From the NCBI GenBank assembly GCA_964372755.1, contig CAYJQX010000004.1, positions 10,766 to 74,765 of the forward strand: DNA of 64,000 nucleotides, written 5' to 3'. This stretch comes from an uncultured Candidatus Saccharibacteria bacterium. Its GTDB lineage: Bacteria; Patescibacteriota; Minisyncoccia; UBA9983. The notes beneath the pieces were generated by a model. It made no database searches. It saw nothing but the letters and a program-made list of their open reading frames with translations, and was not told the DNA's origin. Below, one piece after another: positions 791-62,076 of this stretch (positions are counted from its first letter, which is position 1; every line of letters starts with the position of its first letter). Position numbers and translations under genes: made by a program.

Positions 791-3472
791 ATGAATCCAT
801 TTTCAAATTTTACCGTTAAAGCTCAGGAGGCCCTGCGCAAGGCGCATGAGTTGGCTATTGAGAGAGGACAAAACCAAATAGACCCGATGCATCTTCTAGC
901 TGCTCTTACCCTGCAGGACGATAGTCTGGTCCTCTCTATCTTAGAAAGACTAGAGATAGATGTTAATTTCCTCGCAGACTCTATTTTGGAAAATTTAGCT
1001 GAAGGAGAGTCGGCTACTTTGGCTTCGCCTGGTTTCCAAATTTATCTTTCCCCAGAACTTGGACGAATCTTGGAGTCCTCGCAGAAAATCGCTCAGTTTT
1101 TGAAGGATGATTATGTTTCTACCGAACATCTTTTTATGGCGCTTCTGGATGTTGCTTCTCCTGCCAAAGACTTGCTGGAACGTTTCAAGGTGGACAAGGA
1201 AAAGGTGATGAGAGTCTTGAAAGAATTTCGCGACGTGCGTTCTGCTGAAATAAAAGAGCCCAAAAAACTTCGCCTGATAGAAAAATATACTCGCAATCTT
1301 ACGGATTTGGCGAGAAGCGATAAACTTGATCCGATTATTGGGAGAGAAGAGGAAATTCGCAGGGTTATGCAGATTCTTTCTCGCCGAACAAAAAACAATC
1401 CGATTTTGATCGGTGAGGCGGGAGTGGGAAAAACGGCCATTGCCGAAGGCCTGGCTCTTCGCATTGGCAAGGGCGATGCCCCAGAATCTCTCAAAGAAAA
1501 AGAAATAGTTTCTCTTGATTTGGGACTTTTAGTTGCGGGAACAAAGTATCGCGGGGAATTTGAAGAGCGCCTAAAAGGCATAATGAAAGAGGTAGAGAGA
1601 GCGCAAGGTAAAATAATTTTGTTTGTGGATGAGATTCATACGATTGTGGGCGCCGGAGCGGCCGAGGGAGCTATTGATGCTTCCAATATGTTGAAGCCCG
1701 CTTTGGCCCGAGGAGAACTTAGAATGATAGGGGCTACCACCTTGAAAGAATATCAAAAGCATATAGAAAAAGATCCGGCTCTCACTCGCAGATTTCAACC
1801 AGTTTATGTGGAAGAGCCTTCGCAGGAAGATGCCATCGCTATTCTTCGCGGGTTAAAAGAAAAATACGAACTTTTCCATGGAGTGAAAATTACCGATGAA
1901 GCCATTCGAGCCTCCGTGCACCTTTCGAGGCGTTATATTACCGACAGATTTTTGCCGGACAAAGCGGTAGACTTGATTGATGAAGCCGCTTCGGCTTTGC
2001 GTTTGCAATTAGATAGCATGCCCGAGGAGCTTGAGAGAGTCCATCGGGAAATCATGAAGTTAGAAATTGAAAAAGAATCTTTGAAAAAAGATAAAGGTGA
2101 AGGTAAGAGGGTGAAAGAAATTGAAAAAGAAATCAGCAACTTAAAGGAAAAAACTTCTGGTTTGGAGATAAAATGGAAAAACGAAAAAGGTTCTCTTGCC
2201 AGCATCAATACTATGAAAAGAGAGATAGAAGCTTTGCGTTTTGAAGCTGAAAACGCCGAGCGTATGGCCGATTTTTCTCGAGTGGCGGAAATTAGATACG
2301 GCCAGCTGTCTTTCCTTGAAAAACAGGTTCAAGCGGAAGAGAAAAAACTTAAACGCCTTCAGTCATCGAGGCAAATTCTTAAGGAAGTGATTAACGAGGA
2401 AGATGTTGCCAGTGTCGTTTCCAAATGGACGGGTATTCCCGTTGTCAAAATGCTCCAAGAAGAAGCTCAAAAATTAATGTCTATGGAGACGGAGTTGAAG
2501 AAAAGAATTGTGGGTCAAGATGAAGCTATTTCTAAAATTTCAAACGCAGTCCGTAGATCTCGAGCAGGCGTGGGGGATGAAGACAGGCCAATCGGCTCCT
2601 TTATGTTTCTGGGGCCAACCGGAGTTGGAAAAACTTATTTGGCTCAAAGTTTGGCAGAGTTTATGTTTGCGAGCGAGAAAGCTTTGGTAAGGATTGACAT
2701 GTCCGAGTACATGGAAAAACACACAGTCTCCAAATTTATCGGCGCGCCGGCCGGCTATGTCGGCTATGAAGAAGGAGGCCAGCTTACGGAAATTATTCGT
2801 CACAGGCCGTATTCGGTGGTACTTTTTGACGAAATAGAAAAGGCTCACCCGGAGGTTTTCAACATTATGTTGCAAATTTTAGACAATGGCCATTTAACAG
2901 ACTCCAAAGGAAGAAAAGTGAATTTTAAAAACACTATTCTTATTATGACTTCAAATATCGGCTCGGAACATATCCGCCGGATGTCTTCAGTTGGTTTTCT
3001 GACGAACAATAGTTCCGAAGAAGCGCGTAGGGAAGGAGATTTGAAGGAAAAAATAAGGGAAGCATTAGAATCTAATTTTCGTCCGGAGTTTTTGAATCGT
3101 CTGGATGAGATTGTTATTTTCAACAGCCTAGCGCAAGAAAATGTCCAGGAAATAGCTAAACTTCAAATCGAGAAAACAAAGAAAAGATTACTGGATAAAG
3201 AAATAACACTTATTATTTCCCCGATTGCCTTGGAACAACTTGCTAAACAAGGATATGACCAGAATTATGGAGCTAGACCAATGAAGAGGTTTATTCAATC
3301 AAAAATTTTAAATCCCGTAGCGGAAGCCTTGATTTCTGGCAAAGCCATCTCTGGAGACTCGGTTTTTGTGGATTTCAAAGACGGGCAATTTGTTGTGGAG
3401 ACTCAAAAGAAGAAAAAAATTTCTAATACCAAAATTTCTCAAAAAACTCAAAAGGAAAAAATCCTCTCCTAA
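791..3472 (+). CDS. clpB: ATP-dependent chaperone ClpB (Clp N-domain, two AAA+ modules, coiled-coil middle domain)
   Basis: The protein is 893 aa. Walker [16 protein letters not shown] sits in NBD1 and LGPTGVGKT in NBD2. A long coiled-coil M-domain lies between them, and the C-terminus is Clp-like. Confidence 0.95.
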
Positions 3473-5792: not shown

Positions 5793-6237
5793 CAGATGAT
5801 TTAAATGCCTTTTTTCCAGCGGGAATCCGACTACGGATTCCCAGAAAGGAGGAAAAAATTTGAAAGTTTCTTTTTAAGCGCCACCGGCTAATGGGCGCAA
5901 TGACATAAATGAGCCGGAGTCGCAACCTTACGGGATCGGCAAGGTAGGTAGCTTGCACTCGTAAGGGATGTGGCTGAAGATTTTCAGGATAAAGTCCGAA
6001 ACGGGAGTGGCTTGATCGGCGCGACGGAGTTTCTCTCCATTTGCCATCGACACTCTACTTTATTCTGAAAATCTTCTTAAAAAATTTATAAATATTTTTT
6101 TGACCCCCGACGAAAGTCGCGGAGCCACGAGATCCACGTATTTATTCAGGATGGACTGCGCCAGAAGCGCGGCACTGGATAAATGGATACTCAAAGCTTC
6201 TCGATGATATAAAGTAGTCGGGGGTTTTGTTTTTTTA
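5793..6237 (+). ncRNA. Candidate structured noncoding RNA of unassigned family, about 440 nt, running from the promoter to a GC-stem plus U-run terminator
   Basis: There is no ORF above 28 aa on this strand. Structural elements are listed in order. A perfect 9-bp hairpin gggaatccg-actac-cggattccc sits at 5821-5843. A strong SD plus a 5-codon uORF follows (aaaggagg N7 TTG AAA GTT TCT TTT TAA). Nested helices ccttacg...cgtaagg and gcaag...cttgc are present. A GAAA-tetraloop hairpin cgac-gaaa-gtcg sits at 6108-6119. A long-range stem cccccgac/gtcggggg is followed by ttttgttttttt. Confidence 0.35.
6104..6237 (+). terminator. Putative Rho-independent terminator on the + strand (8-bp GC stem closing a large structured insert, then a U-run). 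It abuts the stop codon of the convergent gene.
   Basis: cccccgac at 6104-6111 pairs with gtcggggg at 6217-6224. The U-run ttttgttttttt follows at 6225-6236. On the minus strand the stem is not followed by a U-run. Confidence 0.45.
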
Positions 6238-18811: not shown

Positions 18812-18851
18812 CCAGTGAGTAATTCTGACATATGTCAGAATTACTCACTGG
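18812..18851. promoter_or_regulatory. Perfect 40-bp palindrome (20-bp arms, no spacer) about 20 bp upstream of the EEP gene start. It is a candidate operator.
   Basis: ccagtgagtaattctgacat is followed by its exact reverse complement atgtcagaattactcactgg. Confidence 0.4.
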
Positions 18852-26667: not shown

Positions 26668-26689
26668 TCAAAAAGTAAGGGCAAAAAGA

Positions 26690-26730
26690 AAAAAAGCGAA
26701 GACAAGAGTTGTCTTCGCTTTTTTGTTTTT
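26690..26730. terminator. Bidirectional Rho-independent terminator between convergent genes
   Basis: An A-run precedes the stem gcgaagaca/tgtcttcgc (loop agagt), and ttttttgttttt follows. Confidence 0.6.
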
Positions 26731-27284
26731 TACCTTGAAGAGAGAGAGAGCCAGTCAAAAAACTCTTTTTTGCGGACAAAATATGTCCGCTTTTTTCCGT
26801 TGCCCCAGTCCACATGGGCAAAGCATCCCATTTTAAAATGGATTGGGAGAATTTCTCTCATTCCTTGCTTGCCTTCCAAAGCGAGCTTAATGCTCTCATG
26901 GGCTTTGAGACCCGACCCTCTTGCCGCTCCGCAAGGGGCGTGCACGTGGTAGGCCAAAGTGTCAATTCCCTTGATTTCGCAACCGGCAATTATATGCCGG
27001 ATCATTACCTCCTTATCGGGATATTTTAAGTTCGGAAGGTAATTTTTCGATAAAATCATGGCTCCGCCATTTAAGGCGATTGTATGCACCACCGCGCCAG
27101 AGCCGTTTCTTGAGCATATCGACTCCTGATGCCGGAATATATCAGCCATATGATGGCCATCGGCGCAGGTGACGAGTAAGACTTTCAAAGGATCTTGTAG
27201 ACGATGGGGATCTATATCGTCCAAGATCCTTTTCTCTCTGAGCTCCGAGAGAATTTCTCTTTCCTCCGGATCTAAAATTAGCAT
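26730..27284 (-). CDS. Hypothetical Cys/His-rich protein (184 aa)
   Basis: A clean ORF between divergent and convergent neighbours. No recognised family. Confidence 0.45.
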   Translation of the reverse strand: MLILDPEEREILSELREKRILDDIDPHRLQDPLKVLLVTCADGHHMADIFRHQESICSRNGSGAVVHTIALNGGAMILSKNYLPNLKYPDKEVMIRHIIAGCEIKGIDTLAYHVHAPCGAARGSGLKAHESIKLALEGKQGMREILPIHFKMGCFAHVDWGNGKKRTYFVRKKEFFDWLSLSSR

Positions 27285-44119: not shown

Positions 44120-44554
44120 ATGTTTATCGGCGAATACAGACATAATTTAGACAACAAAAACCGTCTTGCCTTGCCCGCGAAATTCAGAAAAGATTTGGGT
44201 AAAAAGGTGGCGGTTACAAGAGGGCTTGATTCCTGCTTGTTTGTTTATCCTTGGAGAGAATGGGAAAAGGTGGCGGAAAAATTAGGAGAGCTCCCGACCG
44301 GTCAGAGTGATTCTAGAGATTTTGTGAGATTAATGTTGTCTGGAGCGGTGGAGGCGGAGATTGACAGCGCGGGGCGTATTCTTGTGCCGGATTATTTAAA
44401 AGAATTTGGAGGCCTGAAAGAGACGGTGGTTGTTGCCGGCTTATACAAAAGAATAGAGCTTTGGGAAGAAGGTCGTTGGAATACTTATAAGTCAAAAGTA
44501 GAGAAACAAACCGATTCGCTAGCAGAAAAACTTGGACAAGTCGGAGGCTTCTAA
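44120..44554 (+). CDS. mraZ: Transcriptional regulator MraZ
   Basis: The tandem SpoVT/AbrB-like repeats carry the DNKNRLALPAKFR motif. Confidence 0.92.
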   Translation: MFIGEYRHNLDNKNRLALPAKFRKDLGKKVAVTRGLDSCLFVYPWREWEKVAEKLGELPTGQSDSRDFVRLMLSGAVEAEIDSAGRILVPDYLKEFGGLKETVVVAGLYKRIELWEEGRWNTYKSKVEKQTDSLAEKLGQVGGF

Positions 44555-44589
44555 CCAAGACGGGAAACTTGCGAAACGAACGCAAAAAA

Positions 44590-44745
44590 AGAAATAAATC
44601 ATAAATCCGAATATCGAAATCCGAAACAATGATTAAATTTTTCCTCGACAAAGCCTCGGAATGAATAAAATTTAGAAATAATTAGGATTTACTTGTTTCG
44701 TTCGCCAACTGGCGAATTCGTGCTTCGGATTTAAGTTAATTGTTT
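44590..44745. repeat. About 150-nt TIR-bearing intergenic repeat (copy 1 of 3; nearly identical copy at 53715-53870)
   Basis: aaatccgaaacaatgattaaatttttcctcgacaaagcctcggaatgaataaaatttagaaataattaggatttacttgtttcgttcgccaactggcgaattcgtgcttcggatttaagttaatt. The terminal inverted repeats are aatccgaaaca and tg(c/t)ttcggatt. Confidence 0.7.
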
Positions 44746-44770
44746 TTCAGGGGTTACACAATAAAAAAAG

Positions 44771-45661
44771 ATGCACATACCAGTTTTACCAAAAGAAACA
44801 TTAGAAGCATTAAACCCAAAAATGGGCGAGGTTATTGTTGATGCGACGGTAAATGGTGGAGGGCATGCTGAAATGATTTGCGAAAAATTAGGCCAAGAGG
44901 GAACTCTTGTTGCAATAGACGAAGACAAAGACATCCTTCGCGAGACAACTCAGCGTCTTTCTAAAATCGGCCCCAAAATTGTTTCCATTCAGGGTAATTT
45001 TAGAAAAATAGAAGATCTTGTCGGCCAAAATAAGATCAATGCCGTTTCAGGCGTTTTGTTCGATTTTGGAATGAGTTCCAACCAAATAGAAAATTCTGGC
45101 AGAGGATTTTCCTTCAACCGCGATGAACCACTGGTCATGACTTACAATCCTTCGCCCAAAGAGGAAGATCTTACGGCTTATCAGATTGTGAATAGCTGGA
45201 GTCAAGAAGATTTGGCCGAGATAATTTTTCGATATGGAGAAGAGAGGCATTCCCGAAAAATAGCAAAAGCCATAGTTTGCGCGCGGGAAGAAAAATCCAT
45301 TCTTTCAACAACTGATTTGAAAAAAATAATTGAAGAAGCTGTCCCCGCTGGATACAGGAAAGGGAAAATTCATCCAGCCACAAAGACTTTTCAAGCCTTA
45401 AGAATTGCCGTAAACGACGAATTAAATGCCATAAAAGAAGGACTGGTGGGAGCATGGTCTCTTCTTTCTCCAGAGGGAAGATTGGTGGCCATTTCTTTTC
45501 ATTCTCTCGAGGACAGAATAGTCAAGCATTTTTTAAAAGACAAGCACTTATCCGGTGAAGGCATTATTTTAACAAAAAAACCCAGTATTGCTGATCGGGA
45601 AGAAACGACAAAAAATAATCGCGCAAGAAGCGCCAAGTTAAGAGCGATAGTAAAAAAGTAA
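44771..45661 (+). CDS. rsmH: 16S rRNA (cytosine1402-N4)-methyltransferase RsmH (MraW)
   Basis: HIPVLPKETLEAL is the N-terminal motif. DATVNGGGHA and LFDFGMSSNQI are SAM-binding motifs. Confidence 0.92.
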   Translation: MHIPVLPKETLEALNPKMGEVIVDATVNGGGHAEMICEKLGQEGTLVAIDEDKDILRETTQRLSKIGPKIVSIQGNFRKIEDLVGQNKINAVSGVLFDFGMSSNQIENSGRGFSFNRDEPLVMTYNPSPKEEDLTAYQIVNSWSQEDLAEIIFRYGEERHSRKIAKAIVCAREEKSILSTTDLKKIIEEAVPAGYRKGKIHPATKTFQALRIAVNDELNAIKEGLVGAWSLLSPEGRLVAISFHSLEDRIVKHFLKDKHLSGEGIILTKKPSIADREETTKNNRARSAKLRAIVKK

Positions 45662-47689: not shown

Positions 47690-47800
47690 TTCGACACCAA
47701 TACGCGAATGGACACGAATGACGCTAATGTAATACCAAGTCTTAACTTATTTCTTTATTAGTGACATTCGCGCGTATTATTTGTGTATTAGTGTCGGGTA
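47690..47800. repeat. About 110-nt hairpin/TIR intergenic repeat (family shared with 61968-62076 and 42296-42412)
   Basis: cgacaccaatacgcgaatggacacgaatgacgctaatgtaataccaagtcttaa...cattcgcgcgtattatttgtgtattagtgtcg. The termini cgacac(c/t)aatac and gtattagtgtcg are reverse complements. Confidence 0.7.
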
Positions 47801-47803
47801 AAT

Positions 47804-52127: not shown

Positions 52128-52165
52128 TTAAACCGCCCCTAGATTTTTTGGGCGGTTTTTTTCTT
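52128..52165 (+). terminator. Rho-independent terminator
   Basis: The stem accgccc/gggcggt is followed by ttttttt. Confidence 0.5.
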
Positions 52166-53232: not shown

Positions 53233-53403
53233 ATATATTAGATGTTGAACGCCTAATGTCCGTATTTTTCAAAAAAACTTGATTTTTACAGATTAATATG
53301 AGAATATGAGCAGGTTATGGCAAAAGACACTAAAGTAATTAAGAAAGTCCCACTTCGCTCTAAAAGCTCCGCGGGACAGGTCTCAAAAAAAGAGGTTTCT
53401 GAC

Positions 53404-53709
53404 ATGTTAGCCGTTATCAAAACTGGCGGTAAGCAATATATCGTTACTCCCGGAATGAAGCTTGAAGTAGAAAGACTAAAGAGGCCTTTGGGAGAAGAAT
53501 TTTCTTTTGACGAGGTTTTGCTTGTGGCAAAAGGCGATGATGTAAAAGTGGGAAGTCCTCTTGTGGAAGGCGCTAAGGTAATGGCCGTTTCAAATGGAGA
53601 AAAAAGATCTAAGAAAGTTAATATTGTAAAATTTAAGTCTAAAGTGCGCTATCACAAGACCCAAGGACATCGTCAAATAAAGACCGTTGTGGCGATAAAG
53701 GCGATTTAG
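53404..53709 (+). CDS. rplU: 50S ribosomal protein L21
   Basis: MLAVIKTGGKQYIVTPGMKLEVERL is the canonical L21 N-terminus. AAGAGG lies 8 nt upstream of ATG 53404. The ORF-track start at 53317 would add an atypical 29-aa extension. Confidence 0.82.
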   Translation: MLAVIKTGGKQYIVTPGMKLEVERLKRPLGEEFSFDEVLLVAKGDDVKVGSPLVEGAKVMAVSNGEKRSKKVNIVKFKSKVRYHKTQGHRQIKTVVAIKAI

Positions 53710-53714
53710 GATAA

Positions 53715-53870
53715 AAAATAAATCAAAATTCGAATATCAAAATCCGAAACAAAGATTAATTTTTTCCTCGACAAAGCCTCGGAGTGAATAAAATTTAGAA
53801 ATAATTAGGATTTATTTGTTTCGTTCGTCAACTGGCGAATTCGTGTTTCGGATTTAGCTTAATTTTATCT
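53715..53870. repeat. About 150-nt TIR-bearing intergenic repeat (copy 2 of 3). It fills the convergent rplU|recR gap.
   Basis: Near-identical to 44590-44745 (aaatccgaaacaaagattaattttttcctcgacaaagcctcggagtgaataaaatttagaaataattaggatttatttgtttcgttcgtcaactggcgaattcgtgtttcggatttagcttaatt). Confidence 0.7.
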
Positions 53871-54491
53871 TCTTCCTTCCATCGCGGCGGCAATTGTATC
53901 GCGGTCGCTGTATTCTAATTCAGACCCTGTAGAAAGCCCTCGCCCTAAACGGGTGATTTTTATTTTCGGAAATTTAGAAATAATAATCGGGGCAATAGTT
54001 TGATCCTCAATGACGCGGGCTGTTAATTCTCCTTCAAGCGTGGCGCTGGTGGCCAGGATGATTTCTTCCAAGTCTTTACCGGATTTTTGAATTCGATTAG
54101 CCAATTCTTTCAGGCGAATAGATTCTCTGGATTTTCGCGAACTTAAGCTGGTTGGCATAGCTCCACCCAAGACAAAATATAACCCTTTGTAAGCTCCGGA
54201 AGCTTCTATGACTTCTAGATCGGCGTCTTTTTCCAAAATCATGAGAGTATTTTTTTCTCGGTCTGGGTTTGCGCAAATTGGGCATAGATAAGCTTCGTTG
54301 TCTTTCTTGCCGAATATTTTGAAACACATCCGACAGCGTCCCACTTCGCTTTTTATTTTTGTAATCAGCGAGGAAAGTTCGTTTATATATTCGTTGTCCG
54401 CGGAGAAAATAAAATTAGCAAAGCGTTTGGCTTGTCTAGGGCCGATGCCGGGGAATTTTAAAAATAGTTCCGTAAGACGGTCTAAAATCAT
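53865..54491 (-). CDS. recR: Recombination protein RecR
   Basis: The HhH region is LKFPGIGPRQAKRFA. The C4 zinc finger is CRMC...CPICAN. A Toprim domain is present. Confidence 0.92.
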   Translation of the reverse strand: MILDRLTELFLKFPGIGPRQAKRFANFIFSADNEYINELSSLITKIKSEVGRCRMCFKIFGKKDNEAYLCPICANPDREKNTLMILEKDADLEVIEASGAYKGLYFVLGGAMPTSLSSRKSRESIRLKELANRIQKSGKDLEEIILATSATLEGELTARVIEDQTIAPIIISKFPKIKITRLGRGLSTGSELEYSDRDTIAAAMEGRR

Positions 54492-54527
54492 TTTTTATTG
54501 TGTAATCTCTGAAAAACAATTAACTCA

Positions 54528-54590
54528 AAAGGATTTATTTGTTTCCTTCGCCAACTGGCGAATTCGTGCTTCAGATTTTGATTTGTTATT
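54528..54590. repeat. Partial copy (3' half) of the 150-nt repeat family
   Basis: ggatttatttgtttccttcgccaactggcgaattcgtgcttcagattttgatttg matches the 3' half of the copies at 44590 and 53715. Confidence 0.5.
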
Positions 54591-54599
54591 TTTTTACTT

Positions 54600-55958
54600 T
54601 TATAATTCGTTAAATTCGCTTTTTTCTAAGGTAGAAAAGCTCACTTTTTCAGGCGTGAAATAAAGATCTACTTTTCCGGTCGGGCCATTGCGGTGCTTTT
54701 CTATCAAAATTTCCACGATATTAGAACGCTCTTCTGGCGCTTTGTGTTTGTCTTCGCGATGGATAAACATTACCACGTCTGCATCCTGCTCGATGCTGCC
54801 ACTGTCGCGAAGGTCAGAAAGTCTTGGGCGTCCGCCTCTTTGCTCTACCGCGCGGGAGAGCTGTGAGAGGGCTAAAACGGGCACATTGAGCTCACGGGCG
54901 AGGCTTTTTAATGAACGTGAAATTTCCGTAATTTGCTGAACGGTGCTGTCGTTTTGTTTTCTGGGCACCATCAATTGCAAATAATCCACGATAATGAGCC
55001 CGAGCCCGTGTTCGGCCTGCAGACGGCGGGCCATAGCGCGCATTTGCATAATGTTGTTTGAAGGTTCGTCGTCAATATAGATAGGCGCGGTGGCAAGAGA
55101 ACTTAAAGCGTCTTGCAAGCGTTGGAATTCATTTTCATTTGAGAGTTGGCCGGTGCGAAGTTTCCAAGAATCAACGTGGGCTTCGGCGGAGAGAAGCCTG
55201 TCTACGAGTTGTTGGGAAGACATTTCAAGAGAAAAAATGCCGACAGGGATAGAATGCCTGCAAGCCACATTTCTGGCAATATCCAAGGCGAGAGCCGTTT
55301 TTCCCATAGAAGGTCTTGCCGCCAAAATAACAAGATCCGCTTTTTGAAAGCCGGCTAATTTGGCATCCATGTCTTTAAATCCTGTCGGCACACCGCGAAT
55401 CTCTCCTTTATTTTTATGTAAGCGGTCGATTCTCTCCCAAGCTTCTTCCAGAGCGTGTTTGACACTCAAAAATCTTTGCTTTAGAGACATTCTGGTTATG
55501 CCGAATATTTTTTTCTCGGCTGTGTCCAACACTTCATCCAGCTCGTTTTCTTCTTCATAACCGAGCTGGGAAATATGGTTTGAGGAATCTATGAGATTTC
55601 TTAAAACGCTTTTTTTGTAAACCAATTCGGCATAATGCTTGGCGTTGGCGGCGGTGGGTACGGAATTAACCAGTTCGCTTAAATAAGCTTTTCCACCAAT
55701 TGAATCAAGCTGTTTTTTTTCGGTTAAACGCGCCGAAAGGGTGAGGATGTCTATCGGTTCTTTTTTCTCGTTTAACTCCAACATTGCCTCATAAATAATG
55801 CCGTTTTTACCGGTATAAAAATCTTCGGGACGCAAAACGTCCATCACCACATAAATAGCGTTCGGGTCTATCATCACAGACCCCAAAACGGACTTTTCGG
55901 CGTCCACATTTTGCGGCGGTACTCGGAGGGCGCTGTTTTTTGACGAAACGAATTCCAT
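54600..55958 (-). CDS. dnaB: Replicative DNA helicase DnaB
   Basis: An N-terminal DnaG-interaction domain is present. The Walker A is ARPSMGKTALALDIA. The Walker B is LIIVDYLQLM. The RecA-like core shows no intein. Confidence 0.95.
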   Translation of the reverse strand: MEFVSSKNSALRVPPQNVDAEKSVLGSVMIDPNAIYVVMDVLRPEDFYTGKNGIIYEAMLELNEKKEPIDILTLSARLTEKKQLDSIGGKAYLSELVNSVPTAANAKHYAELVYKKSVLRNLIDSSNHISQLGYEEENELDEVLDTAEKKIFGITRMSLKQRFLSVKHALEEAWERIDRLHKNKGEIRGVPTGFKDMDAKLAGFQKADLVILAARPSMGKTALALDIARNVACRHSIPVGIFSLEMSSQQLVDRLLSAEAHVDSWKLRTGQLSNENEFQRLQDALSSLATAPIYIDDEPSNNIMQMRAMARRLQAEHGLGLIIVDYLQLMVPRKQNDSTVQQITEISRSLKSLARELNVPVLALSQLSRAVEQRGGRPRLSDLRDSGSIEQDADVVMFIHREDKHKAPEERSNIVEILIEKHRNGPTGKVDLYFTPEKVSFSTLEKSEFNEL

Positions 55959-56192
55959 AGGTAATTGGATTATAGCATAATGGAGATTGTAGTATGTGGA
56001 ATATCCCGAAATTTAAGACCAGAGTCTATAAATTTCGAGGATCCTCGATTTTGTTAGGGCCGACTACGGCCGACAAAATCGGGATAGGTGAAGCAACGAA
56101 AGAAAAGGGGTAATATTCTTCTATTTAGATATTAATATTAAAAACCCTAGTAAATATAGGGCTTTTAATATCCAGAAAGATTTTTTTTAAAA

Positions 56193-57899
56193 TTACCTTG
56201 TACTACGCGGGGAAAGAAGCTCCAAAATCGGCCATAGGACTGTTCCTAGCAGGGAAGGAGACGACCACGATGCAGGCTCACTTGGGGCAGGAGGAGCTTG
56301 TTGTTCAAAAGATGGGGAAGAGGGTTGAGAAGGCATAGTTTCAAAAGAGGACGGCATCATAGTGGGTTCGCTCGTCATATTTGCGGGTGGGGCAAATGAA
56401 CCAGAAGAAGGAGGAATATTTCCTTGCATATCCCGAAAATCTCCGGTTGCAGGTATCATATTTCTCTCTTCCATCATTCTCTTTTCTTGTTCAAACCTCA
56501 TCATGTCATTAGTCTGAAACTCCTCCTCGGAAGGCATTCTCTCACCTTCTCTCATCATTCTTTCTTTTTCATCTCGCATCATATCATTCATCTGAAAATC
56601 TTTTTGTTGTTGGAATTGAGGCGGGAGGTTTCTATTTTGGTTCTCAAACATCCGCCCTCTCATTTCCATCTCCATATTTTTTTGTCTTTCTTTTGGAAAA
56701 GAAGGGAAATCTCTTTTCATCTTTTCGTTGCTTTGATTTTCTTGCATGGCTCGGCTATTTAAAGATTCGCGAATGCACTCCTCCACTTTTCTATGAATTT
56801 CTTCTCTTGCGTTTTCATCTTTAGCTTCGGCGGCTATCCTGCCACATTCCTCCGCGCCCGGAACATTTGTTGGGAAATTTGGTCGGTCCCCCTTATTTTC
56901 TTTTTCAGGTCCGCCAAAAAATCTACCTTCGTTAAATTCTCCTTTTTCAAATCTTTCTTGAACATCGCTGAAGCTCTTAATCCTTTTTTCTAGACCATGG
57001 TTTTTGGAAAACTGAAGACATGTTTGAATGTTTTCCGGGGCTGAACAAAAATCAGAACAAGATTGGGCGGAATCACAACCCCCCGGACCAGCTGGCCTGC
57101 TTTGATTTCCGTTGCCACTCATTTGGGGAGGGGAAAATCCGAGTTTTTCGCCAAAAGCTCGACATTCTTCAAAATGGTCGCTACTGGAGCAATAAGCCTC
57201 ACAAGCTTGTTTAGATTGGCAGGCTCCCGGAGTCTCTCCTTTTTTGGACAGTTCAATAAATTTCCTGATACCTTCGCGTGGCAACGGTGCCGTATTGTTG
57301 CTTTCCTCGTTTATATCGTGGTCTATGCCTGCTGCCTCGGCGAAAGCAAGACATTCTTCAGCGTGGGTGAAATCGGAGCAATAAGCCTCACATTCTCCTC
57401 TAGATTTACAACTGCCCGGAGTGGTGCCTCCTTTTTTCAAAAATTCTTGCATTTTTCTACCGGACTCAATATGTTTTCCTTCCACTCCTTGTTTTTTTGC
57501 AAAGTCCATGCATTCATCCATGTGGTCTAAGTTTTCACAGTAAGCTTCACAAGCCTTCGGGGAATCGCATTGGCCCGGACCGTTTTTATCGCGGATGGCT
57601 TTAGAAAACTTCTTGGCTTTCTCCGCTTCCTCACTTTTCATAAGCCCCTTTTTTTCGGCAAAAGCAATACAACTTTCTATATTTGAGGGATCATCGCAAT
57701 AAGCTTTACAAGCCTTTTTGTCTTCACAGTTTCCCAGTTCTTTAATAGGAAAAACAATGCCGGCGCTTGCAATCTGCTCCTCGCTTGGTTCTTCGGGAAT
57801 ATTCGTTTCTTCCTCTGCCCTAACACTCAAAGCCCCGACAATCATCAGACTGGAGATAAAAACGGATACGAAAAAAACTTTTTTATTATTTCTGTGCAT
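56193..57899 (-). CDS. Secreted cysteine-rich repeat protein (five tandem C-x5/6-C-x3-C-x10/11-C modules, then an M/R/E/Q-rich low-complexity region and a P/S-rich tail)
   Basis: The signal peptide is MHRNNKKVFFVSVFISSLMIVGALSVRAEE. The five repeats run CEDKKACKAYCDDPSNIESCIAF, CDSPKACEAYCENLDHMDECMDF, CKSRGECEAYCSDFTHAEECLAF, CQSKQACEAYCSSSDHFEECRAF and CDSAQSCSDFCSAPENIQTCLQF. Confidence 0.65.
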   Translation of the reverse strand: MHRNNKKVFFVSVFISSLMIVGALSVRAEEETNIPEEPSEEQIASAGIVFPIKELGNCEDKKACKAYCDDPSNIESCIAFAEKKGLMKSEEAEKAKKFSKAIRDKNGPGQCDSPKACEAYCENLDHMDECMDFAKKQGVEGKHIESGRKMQEFLKKGGTTPGSCKSRGECEAYCSDFTHAEECLAFAEAAGIDHDINEESNNTAPLPREGIRKFIELSKKGETPGACQSKQACEAYCSSSDHFEECRAFGEKLGFSPPQMSGNGNQSRPAGPGGCDSAQSCSDFCSAPENIQTCLQFSKNHGLEKRIKSFSDVQERFEKGEFNEGRFFGGPEKENKGDRPNFPTNVPGAEECGRIAAEAKDENAREEIHRKVEECIRESLNSRAMQENQSNEKMKRDFPSFPKERQKNMEMEMRGRMFENQNRNLPPQFQQQKDFQMNDMMRDEKERMMREGERMPSEEEFQTNDMMRFEQEKRMMEERNMIPATGDFRDMQGNIPPSSGSFAPPANMTSEPTMMPSSFETMPSQPSSPSFEQQAPPAPSEPASWSSPSLLGTVLWPILELLSPRSTR

Positions 57900-58138: not shown

Positions 58139-58254
58139 ATACTCTCATTTTAGATAATCTCTATATCTAGACAAGAATAAAGATGATACTTGTGGATAAC
58201 CTTAACCCCACTCTAAAGAAGACCGACTTCGTTAGAGTGGGGTGGGGTTTGACT

Positions 58255-61964: not shown

Positions 61965-61967
61965 ATA

Positions 61968-62076
61968 ACCCGACGCCAATACACAAATGAATACGAATGA
62001 TACTAATGTAATACCAAATCTTAATTTTCCCAGATTCGTGTCATTCGTGCGTGTTATTTGCGTATTAGTGTCGTTA
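61968..62076. repeat. About 110-nt hairpin/TIR intergenic repeat (same family as 47690-47800)
   Basis: ccgacgccaatacacaaatgaatacgaatgatactaatgtaataccaaatcttaa...cattcgtgcgtgttatttgcgtattagtgtcg aligns along its length with the 47690 copy. Confidence 0.7.

Follow-up and report, generated by a model that had tools for sequence, protein, structure and literature searches.

Intercistronic repeats that preserve the stop and start contexts of their neighbors are exemplified by MIRU of mycobacteria and ERIC/IRU of enterobacteria, and examples of prokaryotic MITEs are Correia/NEMIS of Neisseria and RUP of pneumococcus. The prokaryotic MITE has been defined previously (PMC10969869, PMC11602168), and MITEs have been described as clustering and as losing their direct repeats with age (PMC10969869). 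REP and REPIN elements are mobilized by RAYT transposases (PMC3116915, PMC3337134). In pneumococcus, the SPRITE is a repeat that resembles an intrinsic terminator (PMC10969869).

We analyzed a 64-kb stretch of DNA (the window) that is compact, AT-rich, and gene-dense and whose RsmH matches Patescibacteria/Paceibacterota proteins. The upstream regions of ∼53 of its genes mostly lack a Shine-Dalgarno motif and are A-rich before the start codon instead, and 4-nt overlaps were seen in several gene pairs. At three junctions, the window carries a non-coding repeat of ∼153 nt with inverted ends, referred to here as family 1. Its copies and their flanking genes are as follows:

44120-44554: MraZ (NCBIfam)
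44589-44741, + strand: full copy 1, downstream of mraZ (stop 44554) and upstream of rsmH (start 44771); nhmmer E, 3e-55
44771-45661: RsmH (NCBIfam)
53317-53709: L21, encoded by rplU (NCBIfam)
53713-53864, + strand: full copy 2, between the convergent rplU (stop 53709) and recR; found by BLASTN and by the nhmmer profile
53865-54491, − strand: RecR (NCBIfam)
54530-54578, + strand: copy 3 module, a solo 49 nt, AGGATTTA...TTCRGATTT, with the inner hairpin included; repeat family D2
54600-55958, − strand: DnaB (NCBIfam)

A first-pass annotation of this DNA had placed the copies in gaps at gene ends, and the confirmed flanking genes bear this out at mraZ/rsmH, at the convergent pair rplU/recR, and at recR/dnaB. 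Copy 2 directly abuts the recR stop codon (53865-53867).

Family 1 resembles MITEs in being shorter than 500 bp, AT-rich, and non-coding, with subterminal inverted repeats (the MITE range is 10 to 30 nt); in its intergenic location by gene ends; in its presence or absence at orthologous sites; in clustering with other small repeat families; and in the possible formation of a hairpin in transcripts. It differs in having no detectable target-site duplication and no known parent IS or transposase, in being known from three copies, one of which comes with flanking DNA, and in showing no similarity to anything in the collections searched. Because old MITEs can lose their duplications (PMC10969869), a missing target-site duplication does not exclude a MITE.

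A possible likeness to REPINs lies in short motifs paired in inverted orientation about a spacer, with a hairpin of ∼100 to 150 nt, in the extragenic location without a target-site duplication, and in the solo copy 3, which recalls a REP singlet. In contrast to REPINs, the left arm of family 1 shares only ∼12 to 26 nt with the right module and has no inner hairpin, weak AT-rich stems replace GC-rich ones, and no RAYT gene lies in the window; REPINs occur in tens to hundreds of copies, versus the three known for family 1. Like MIRU and ERIC, family 1 is found between operon genes or at gene ends, and its insert gives dnaB a TAA stop and recR an initiation region. However, it is not arranged in tandem as MIRU is, and it has no sequence relation to either repeat and is confined to one uncultured Patescibacteria population. 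With SPRITE it shares a hairpin with T-rich sequence downstream and, for one copy, a location between convergent genes, but its stem is weak (6 bp in the inner part and 9 to 12 AT-rich bp in the outer part) and is followed by no tight T-run.

We favor, with a probability of roughly 55%, the reading that family 1 is a lineage-specific, non-coding, interspersed palindromic repeat of ∼153 nt and of the MITE/REP type, which spread at the DNA level in a Paceibacteria-like host. Since its size, lack of coding sequence, inverted repeats, and presence/absence pattern agree with a MITE and a target-site duplication was not found, we liken it to MITEs and REPINs only: judged by its sequence, it appears to work like one or the other, and it is not filed here as a proven member of either. 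The MITE- or REP-like behavior proposed in the first-pass annotation thus holds for a non-coding inverted-repeat family inserted at junctions, but not for the hallmarks of a target-site duplication and a transposase in the window.

Copies and architecture of family 1

When the window was compared with itself by BLASTN, copies 1 and 2 matched at 92.2% over 153 nt (E, 3e-57). The two ∼150-nt copies described earlier as near-identical therefore both exist, but with 12 differing positions they do not deserve that term. Copy 3 (54530-54578) matched positions 44684-44732 of copy 1 at 93.9% over 49 nt (E, 9e-14), and the third site overall spans 54487-54599. This site had been regarded as a partial copy; it does contain the 49-nt module, but as part of a rearranged composite and not as a plain half-copy. 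An nhmmer profile of family 1 gave exactly three matches in the window, and a family-1 22-mer occurs there three times and a 33-mer twice, with none expected (100 shuffles). The three copies in 64 kb all lie inside 10 kb, and both full copies share one orientation. The inverted repeats and the inner hairpin are located as follows:

44617-44629 (copy 1) and 53740-53752 (copy 2), + strand: left subterminal inverted repeat AAATCCGAAACAA
44602-44611, + strand: second, partial left repeat TAAATCCGAA
44720-44733, + strand: GTGCTTCGGATTTA, right inverted repeat, complementary to the left one
44701-44716, 53824-53839, and 54547-54562, + strand: inner hairpin TTCGCC-AACT-GGCGAA

Read from the left, the element has an A-rich end (AAAAAAGAAATAAATCA) followed by two AAATCCGAA motifs, an AT-rich core that includes CCTCGACAAAGCCTCGGA, a right part consisting of the 49-nt module AGGATTTAYTTGTTTCSTTCGCCAACTGGCGAATTCGTGYTTCRGATTT with its 6-bp hairpin TTCGCC/GGCGAA, and finally a T-rich right end. 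The core is thus GC-poor, as had been noted. The inverted repeats aatccgaaaca/tgyttcggatt, which had been called terminal, are both present but are subterminal, with the repeated unit extending ∼28 nt further to the left and ∼10 nt further to the right. The complement of AAATCCGAAACAA lies at 44720-44732 with two mismatches and at 53843-53855 with one, and the 12-nt pair AAATCCGAAACA/TGTTTCGGATTT is perfect in copy 2 and matches at 11 of 12 positions in copy 1. Imperfect pairing of the arms extends over ∼26 nt, a result equaled or beaten by 2 of 500 shuffles. The left arm lacks the inner hairpin of the right module, and the idea that inversion of the entire 49-nt module produced it was rejected because only 12 to 26 nt align; the palindrome is accordingly weak.

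All six reading frames of the element contain stops, the longest open stretch being ∼37 codons, in agreement with the earlier statement that it has no coding capacity. Peptides from the six frames matched nothing at an E of up to 10 among 5.8 billion predicted proteins.

Junctions in relatives and other hairpin families

Relatives with the same gene order were taken from the RsmH search, and L numbers denote contigs. In L007 (RsmH, 57% identical), the gaps measure 0 nt at mraZ/rsmH, 3 nt at PBP/murF, and 21 nt at L21/recR, and recR and dnaB overlap by 4 nt; the corresponding lengths in the window are 216, 114, 155, and 108 nt. The dnaB stop and the recR start overlap as ATGA both in L007 and in L004/L005 (75% identical). 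Relative to L004, window positions 54492-54599 form a clean insertion of ∼108 nt between AATCAT and AATTCG. At mraZ/rsmH, the window and L004 have in common the left flank ACT(A)TGCGAAACRAACGC and the right flank TGTTTYTCARGGSTTACACAATAAAAA, which lies just before the ATG. Homology between family 1 and the interior of this gap in L004 was considered and rejected (236 of 500 shuffles). In L006 (69% identical), the L004-type junction before the leader (see below) has no family-1 element, and the L21/recR gap of L004 holds a different, AT-rich palindrome (family X). A profile search of the relatives' loci found no copy of family 1.

Since the junctions of these relatives are empty or otherwise filled, the family-1 copies are lineage-specific insertions, and on this comparison family 1 arrived in the window's own lineage. 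The same empty or differently filled junctions in same-order relatives show that the copies are not a reflection of duplicated flanking genes, the alternative raised in the first-pass annotation. At mraZ/rsmH, L007, L008, and L009 have no gap, and L010, a more distant relative (positions 124 to 273; RsmH, 57% identical), has a 149-nt gap with a 9-bp hairpin, CCCGCCTAA/TTAGGCGGG. Because that hairpin is unrelated and the other three contigs are gapless, this junction has been filled independently.

Two other families of hairpin repeats were found at junctions of the window or its relatives:

47690-47803: family 2, at PBP/murF
61965-62075: family 2, before the L9 gene
42296-42414: family 2, at greA/aspS (diverged; 0 of 500 shuffles)
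L004, 4427-4552: family X, an AT-rich palindrome, at PBP/murF
L004, 8476-8601: family X, at L21/recR
L015, 225-340: family X

Family 2 is unrelated to family 1. It has the ends CGACACYAATAC/GTATTAGTGTCG and repeated CGAATG motifs, and its hairpins are strong (RNA fold z, −6.1 and −5.1); positions 3080 to 3190 of L006 are an orthologous copy. L015 is a JGI contig, and its family-X copy abuts the stop of a NusB-NUDIX gene, which brings family X to three loci in the L004-type organism; in two of three cases, the terminal TAA of family X is the stop codon of the neighboring gene. Common termini of families 1 and X (GATTTAAGTTAAT-like) were rejected, since 18 of 300 shuffles did equally well or better. 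Families 1 and 2 have all six of their copies within ∼20 kb (42000-62100) and none in positions 1 to 42000, although intergenic gaps exist there too. The presence of different families at the same orthologous junctions argues for repeated arrivals rather than one duplication; junction-filling hairpin repeats thus come and go in this clade.

Target-site duplications, which the first-pass annotation had proposed to look for, did not emerge. At copies 1 and 2, none was found at any plausible boundary, and comparison of copy 3 with the empty site of L004 gave as its sole candidate a 2-bp AT, such as chance alone might produce. No transposase, RAYT, or integrase was found among the ∼60 window ORFs by Pfam or NCBIfam, the ORFs being housekeeping or without a match. 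The most conserved 22-mer of family 1, TTCGYCAACTGGCGAATTCGTG, had 0 matches in GTDB genome contigs (one genome per species), JGI metagenomes, and IMG/VR (CCTCGACAAAGCCTCGGARTGAATAAAATTTAG is an example of a family-1-specific k-mer). BLASTN of family 1 against phage and plasmid collections returned only one 28-nt chance match. In the GTDB contigs, relatives of the window's RecR were found only in Kuenenbacteria, at 31 to 32% identity.

Copy 3, its leader, and the spread of family 1

At the third site, the 49-nt module is accompanied by a T-rich tail and by a second copy of the leader that precedes rsmH:

44730-44772, + strand: 43-nt leader before the rsmH ATG; from 44741 on, ancestral flank outside the element
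54487-54529, − strand: second leader copy, before the recR ATG (inverted repeat I1, 43 nt, 91%; BLASTN E, 2e-9)
54579-54599, + strand: T-rich tail of copy 3, which supplies a new dnaB TAA stop

The leader is kept before rsmH in L004, L005, L006, L016, and L017, all of which lack the element, and is therefore ancestral at rsmH from 44741. Upstream of recR, it is missing in L004 and L007. The recR leader copy also spans the junction between element and leader, GAGTTAATTG; copy 3 therefore derives from the region upstream of rsmH at a time when the element was already present in it, and it was made from the right part of the element plus the adjoining leader. Because copy 3 carries the ancestral rsmH leader, at least one spread event took flanking DNA along. 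The leader and the 49-nt module are joined at copy 3 in inverted relative order, and the site aligns with copy 1 equally well in either orientation (100.9 and 99.7). Read as its reverse complement, the A-rich left terminus found in the full copies bears a weak resemblance to the tail of copy 3 (local alignment scores of 27 to 28, reached by 4 to 10 of 500 shuffles). The outcome at dnaB/recR is a new TAA stop for dnaB and an A-rich region upstream of recR that replaces the ATGA coupling.

An interpretation of the leader as a general promoter or RBS motif was rejected, as the window has just these two occurrences of it and a search for sigma-70-like sites found none. In L004 (positions 1404 to 1496), a perfect 19-bp hairpin (z, −8.0) has the leader as its 3′ arm; the C>T/G>A difference that L016 shows in this hairpin is compensatory, and L017 has the mismatched intermediate.

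The carry-over of the leader points to recombinational or read-through copying over clean cut-or-copy transposition. Under the favored reading of a MITE/REP-type repeat, family 1 would spread by DNA-level copying over short distances. One possibility is that the element is mobilized in trans, by an enzyme whose gene lies elsewhere, and that copying at times runs on into the flank; another is template switching or ectopic recombination from one junction to another. Copies would survive because the genes tolerate an insertion that falls exactly at their ends. In this genome, with its limited use of Shine-Dalgarno sequences, the copied leader may serve recR as a separate A-rich initiation region where the gene was formerly coupled to dnaB through ATGA, and any effects on transcripts, such as those of a modest hairpin on 3′ ends or on processing, would be a by-product.

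Purely local segmental copying within one 10-kb region, by ectopic recombination, gene conversion, or template switching and with no mobility machinery, is a serious though less probable explanation of the same data, under which the genome would have only these three copies and family 1 would not be a mobile element family. It would account for the confinement of all three copies to 10 kb, for the shared orientation of the full copies, and for the ancestral rsmH leader in copy 3, which simple transposition does not predict. The lack of a target-site duplication, of a transposase in the window, and of family-1 copies in the other searchable collections fits it as well, and it explains equally well that the six copies of families 1 and 2 are all at 42 to 62 kb. 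However, two other hairpin families fill junctions in the same way, and family X is also present at a separate locus, by the NusB-NUDIX gene. The orthologous junctions of different lineages also hold different families, and the inverted-repeat architecture is left unexplained by plain duplication. These observations argue against purely local copying.

Folding, RNA roles, and streamlined genomes

In RNA folding, the left motif pairs with TTCGGATTT and the inner hairpin forms too. Fold z scores were −2.0 and −2.2 for copy 1, and for copy 2 they were −2.4 on the + strand and +0.5 on the − strand (−30.8 versus −20.8 kcal/mol). For DNA folding of the element, z was −0.7, and the whole mraZ-rsmH gap folded no better than shuffles (z, −0.3). 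The long imperfect hairpin that had been predicted does fold, but its stability is modest, with a z of about −2 as RNA. Copies 1 and 2 show no covariation: C-to-T changes on one side only account for all three of their stem differences.

A scan with the intrinsic terminator consensus gave no match for copy 1 and, on the inner hairpin of copy 2, one weak terminator-like match with three GC pairs and the tail TCGTGTTTCG. Family 1 lacks the GC-stem and T-run design of the window's canonical terminators, and the earlier suggestion that it may act as a terminator found little support in these results. Canonical intrinsic terminators of the window were seen at 26680-26734, where one is bidirectional and lies between convergent genes, and at ∼52130-52160. 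Rfam 15 gave no match to family 1; across the whole window, only tRNAs were detected at the gathering score and at an E of up to 0.1, and near copy 1 an E of up to 10 added only chance snoRNA matches (E about 5).

Against this background, it is quite improbable that family 1 is a selected structured RNA or DNA element whose copies are homogenized by concerted evolution, whether as a bidirectional terminator or attenuator, an mRNA 3′-end stabilizer, an RNase processing site, or a small RNA gene. Such a role would suit copy 2, which lies between convergent genes with its hairpin flanked by A-rich sequence on the left and T-rich sequence on the right and which bears the weak terminator-like match, but the clear terminators of this genome look different. 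The better folding of the + strand of copy 2 would also fit, yet folding is only modestly above shuffles, not at all so for the whole mraZ-rsmH gap, and Rfam offers no match even at an E of up to 10. All three C-to-T substitutions in stems keep a G.U pair on the + strand, as a selected RNA might require; however, two-sided covariation is absent, and mutation in an AT-rich genome is expected to be biased toward C-to-T. Some hairpin is retained at these gaps in relatives, including the rsmH hairpin of L004 with its compensatory change in L016, whereas L007 has none at any of these junctions. Orientation relative to transcription is inconsistent too, copy 1 being in sense in the dcw operon and copy 3 rearranged.

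An assembly or binning artifact, such as a chimeric or collapsed repeat, is vanishingly improbable: Logan contig L001 ends inside copy 2, but independent assemblies of three runs give all copies in place at 100% identity (copy 1 in Logan contigs of ERR4904391 and ERR4904390; copy 2 in contig L011 of ERR4904391, which reads through it; and copy 3 in ERR4904392). The break in L001 was also considered as a sign of extra copies, which was rejected because a contig of another run spans copy 2.

Genomes of the candidate phyla radiation are among the most compact known and are usually called poor in repeats and mobile DNA. We found no paper tying MITEs or REPINs to Patescibacteria or to the candidate phyla radiation. 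In the window, five junctions in 14 kb each gained 100 to 216 nt of hairpin-forming repeat DNA relative to the compact relative, and the junction-filling families differ between close lineages. Speculatively, and at fairly long odds, streamlined Patescibacteria may host an undescribed class of junction-filling hairpins, in which unrelated families replace one another at the same junctions (greA/aspS, mraZ/rsmH, PBP/murF, L21/recR, and recR/dnaB), carry A-rich initiation leaders, uncouple overlapping genes, and rewire operon expression in organisms that make little use of Shine-Dalgarno sequences. If this pattern were general, such repeats would mark very recent genome dynamics in uncultured symbionts, would be one reason why symbiont MAGs break during assembly, and would offer a possible route from overlapping, translationally coupled genes to separately initiated ones. 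Family 1 alone is of descriptive value, as one more small repeat family of the known palindromic intergenic class.

Several further features of the window were recorded. An 86-nt direct repeat (57148-57233 and 57337-57422; 72% identity) lies within a 568-aa ORF (56193-57899, − strand) for which neither Pfam nor NCBIfam gave a match. Three intergenic regions, 5967-6086, 55999-56118, and 58139-58254, fold strongly (z, about −5.4 to −5.6) and have no Rfam match; one of them has a ∼28-bp stem inside a 508-nt gap. Just upstream of tRNA-Gln, positions 18812-18851 form a perfect 40-nt palindrome, CCAGTGAGTAATTCTGACAT/ATGTCAGAATTACTCACTGG, with a fold z of −7.6.
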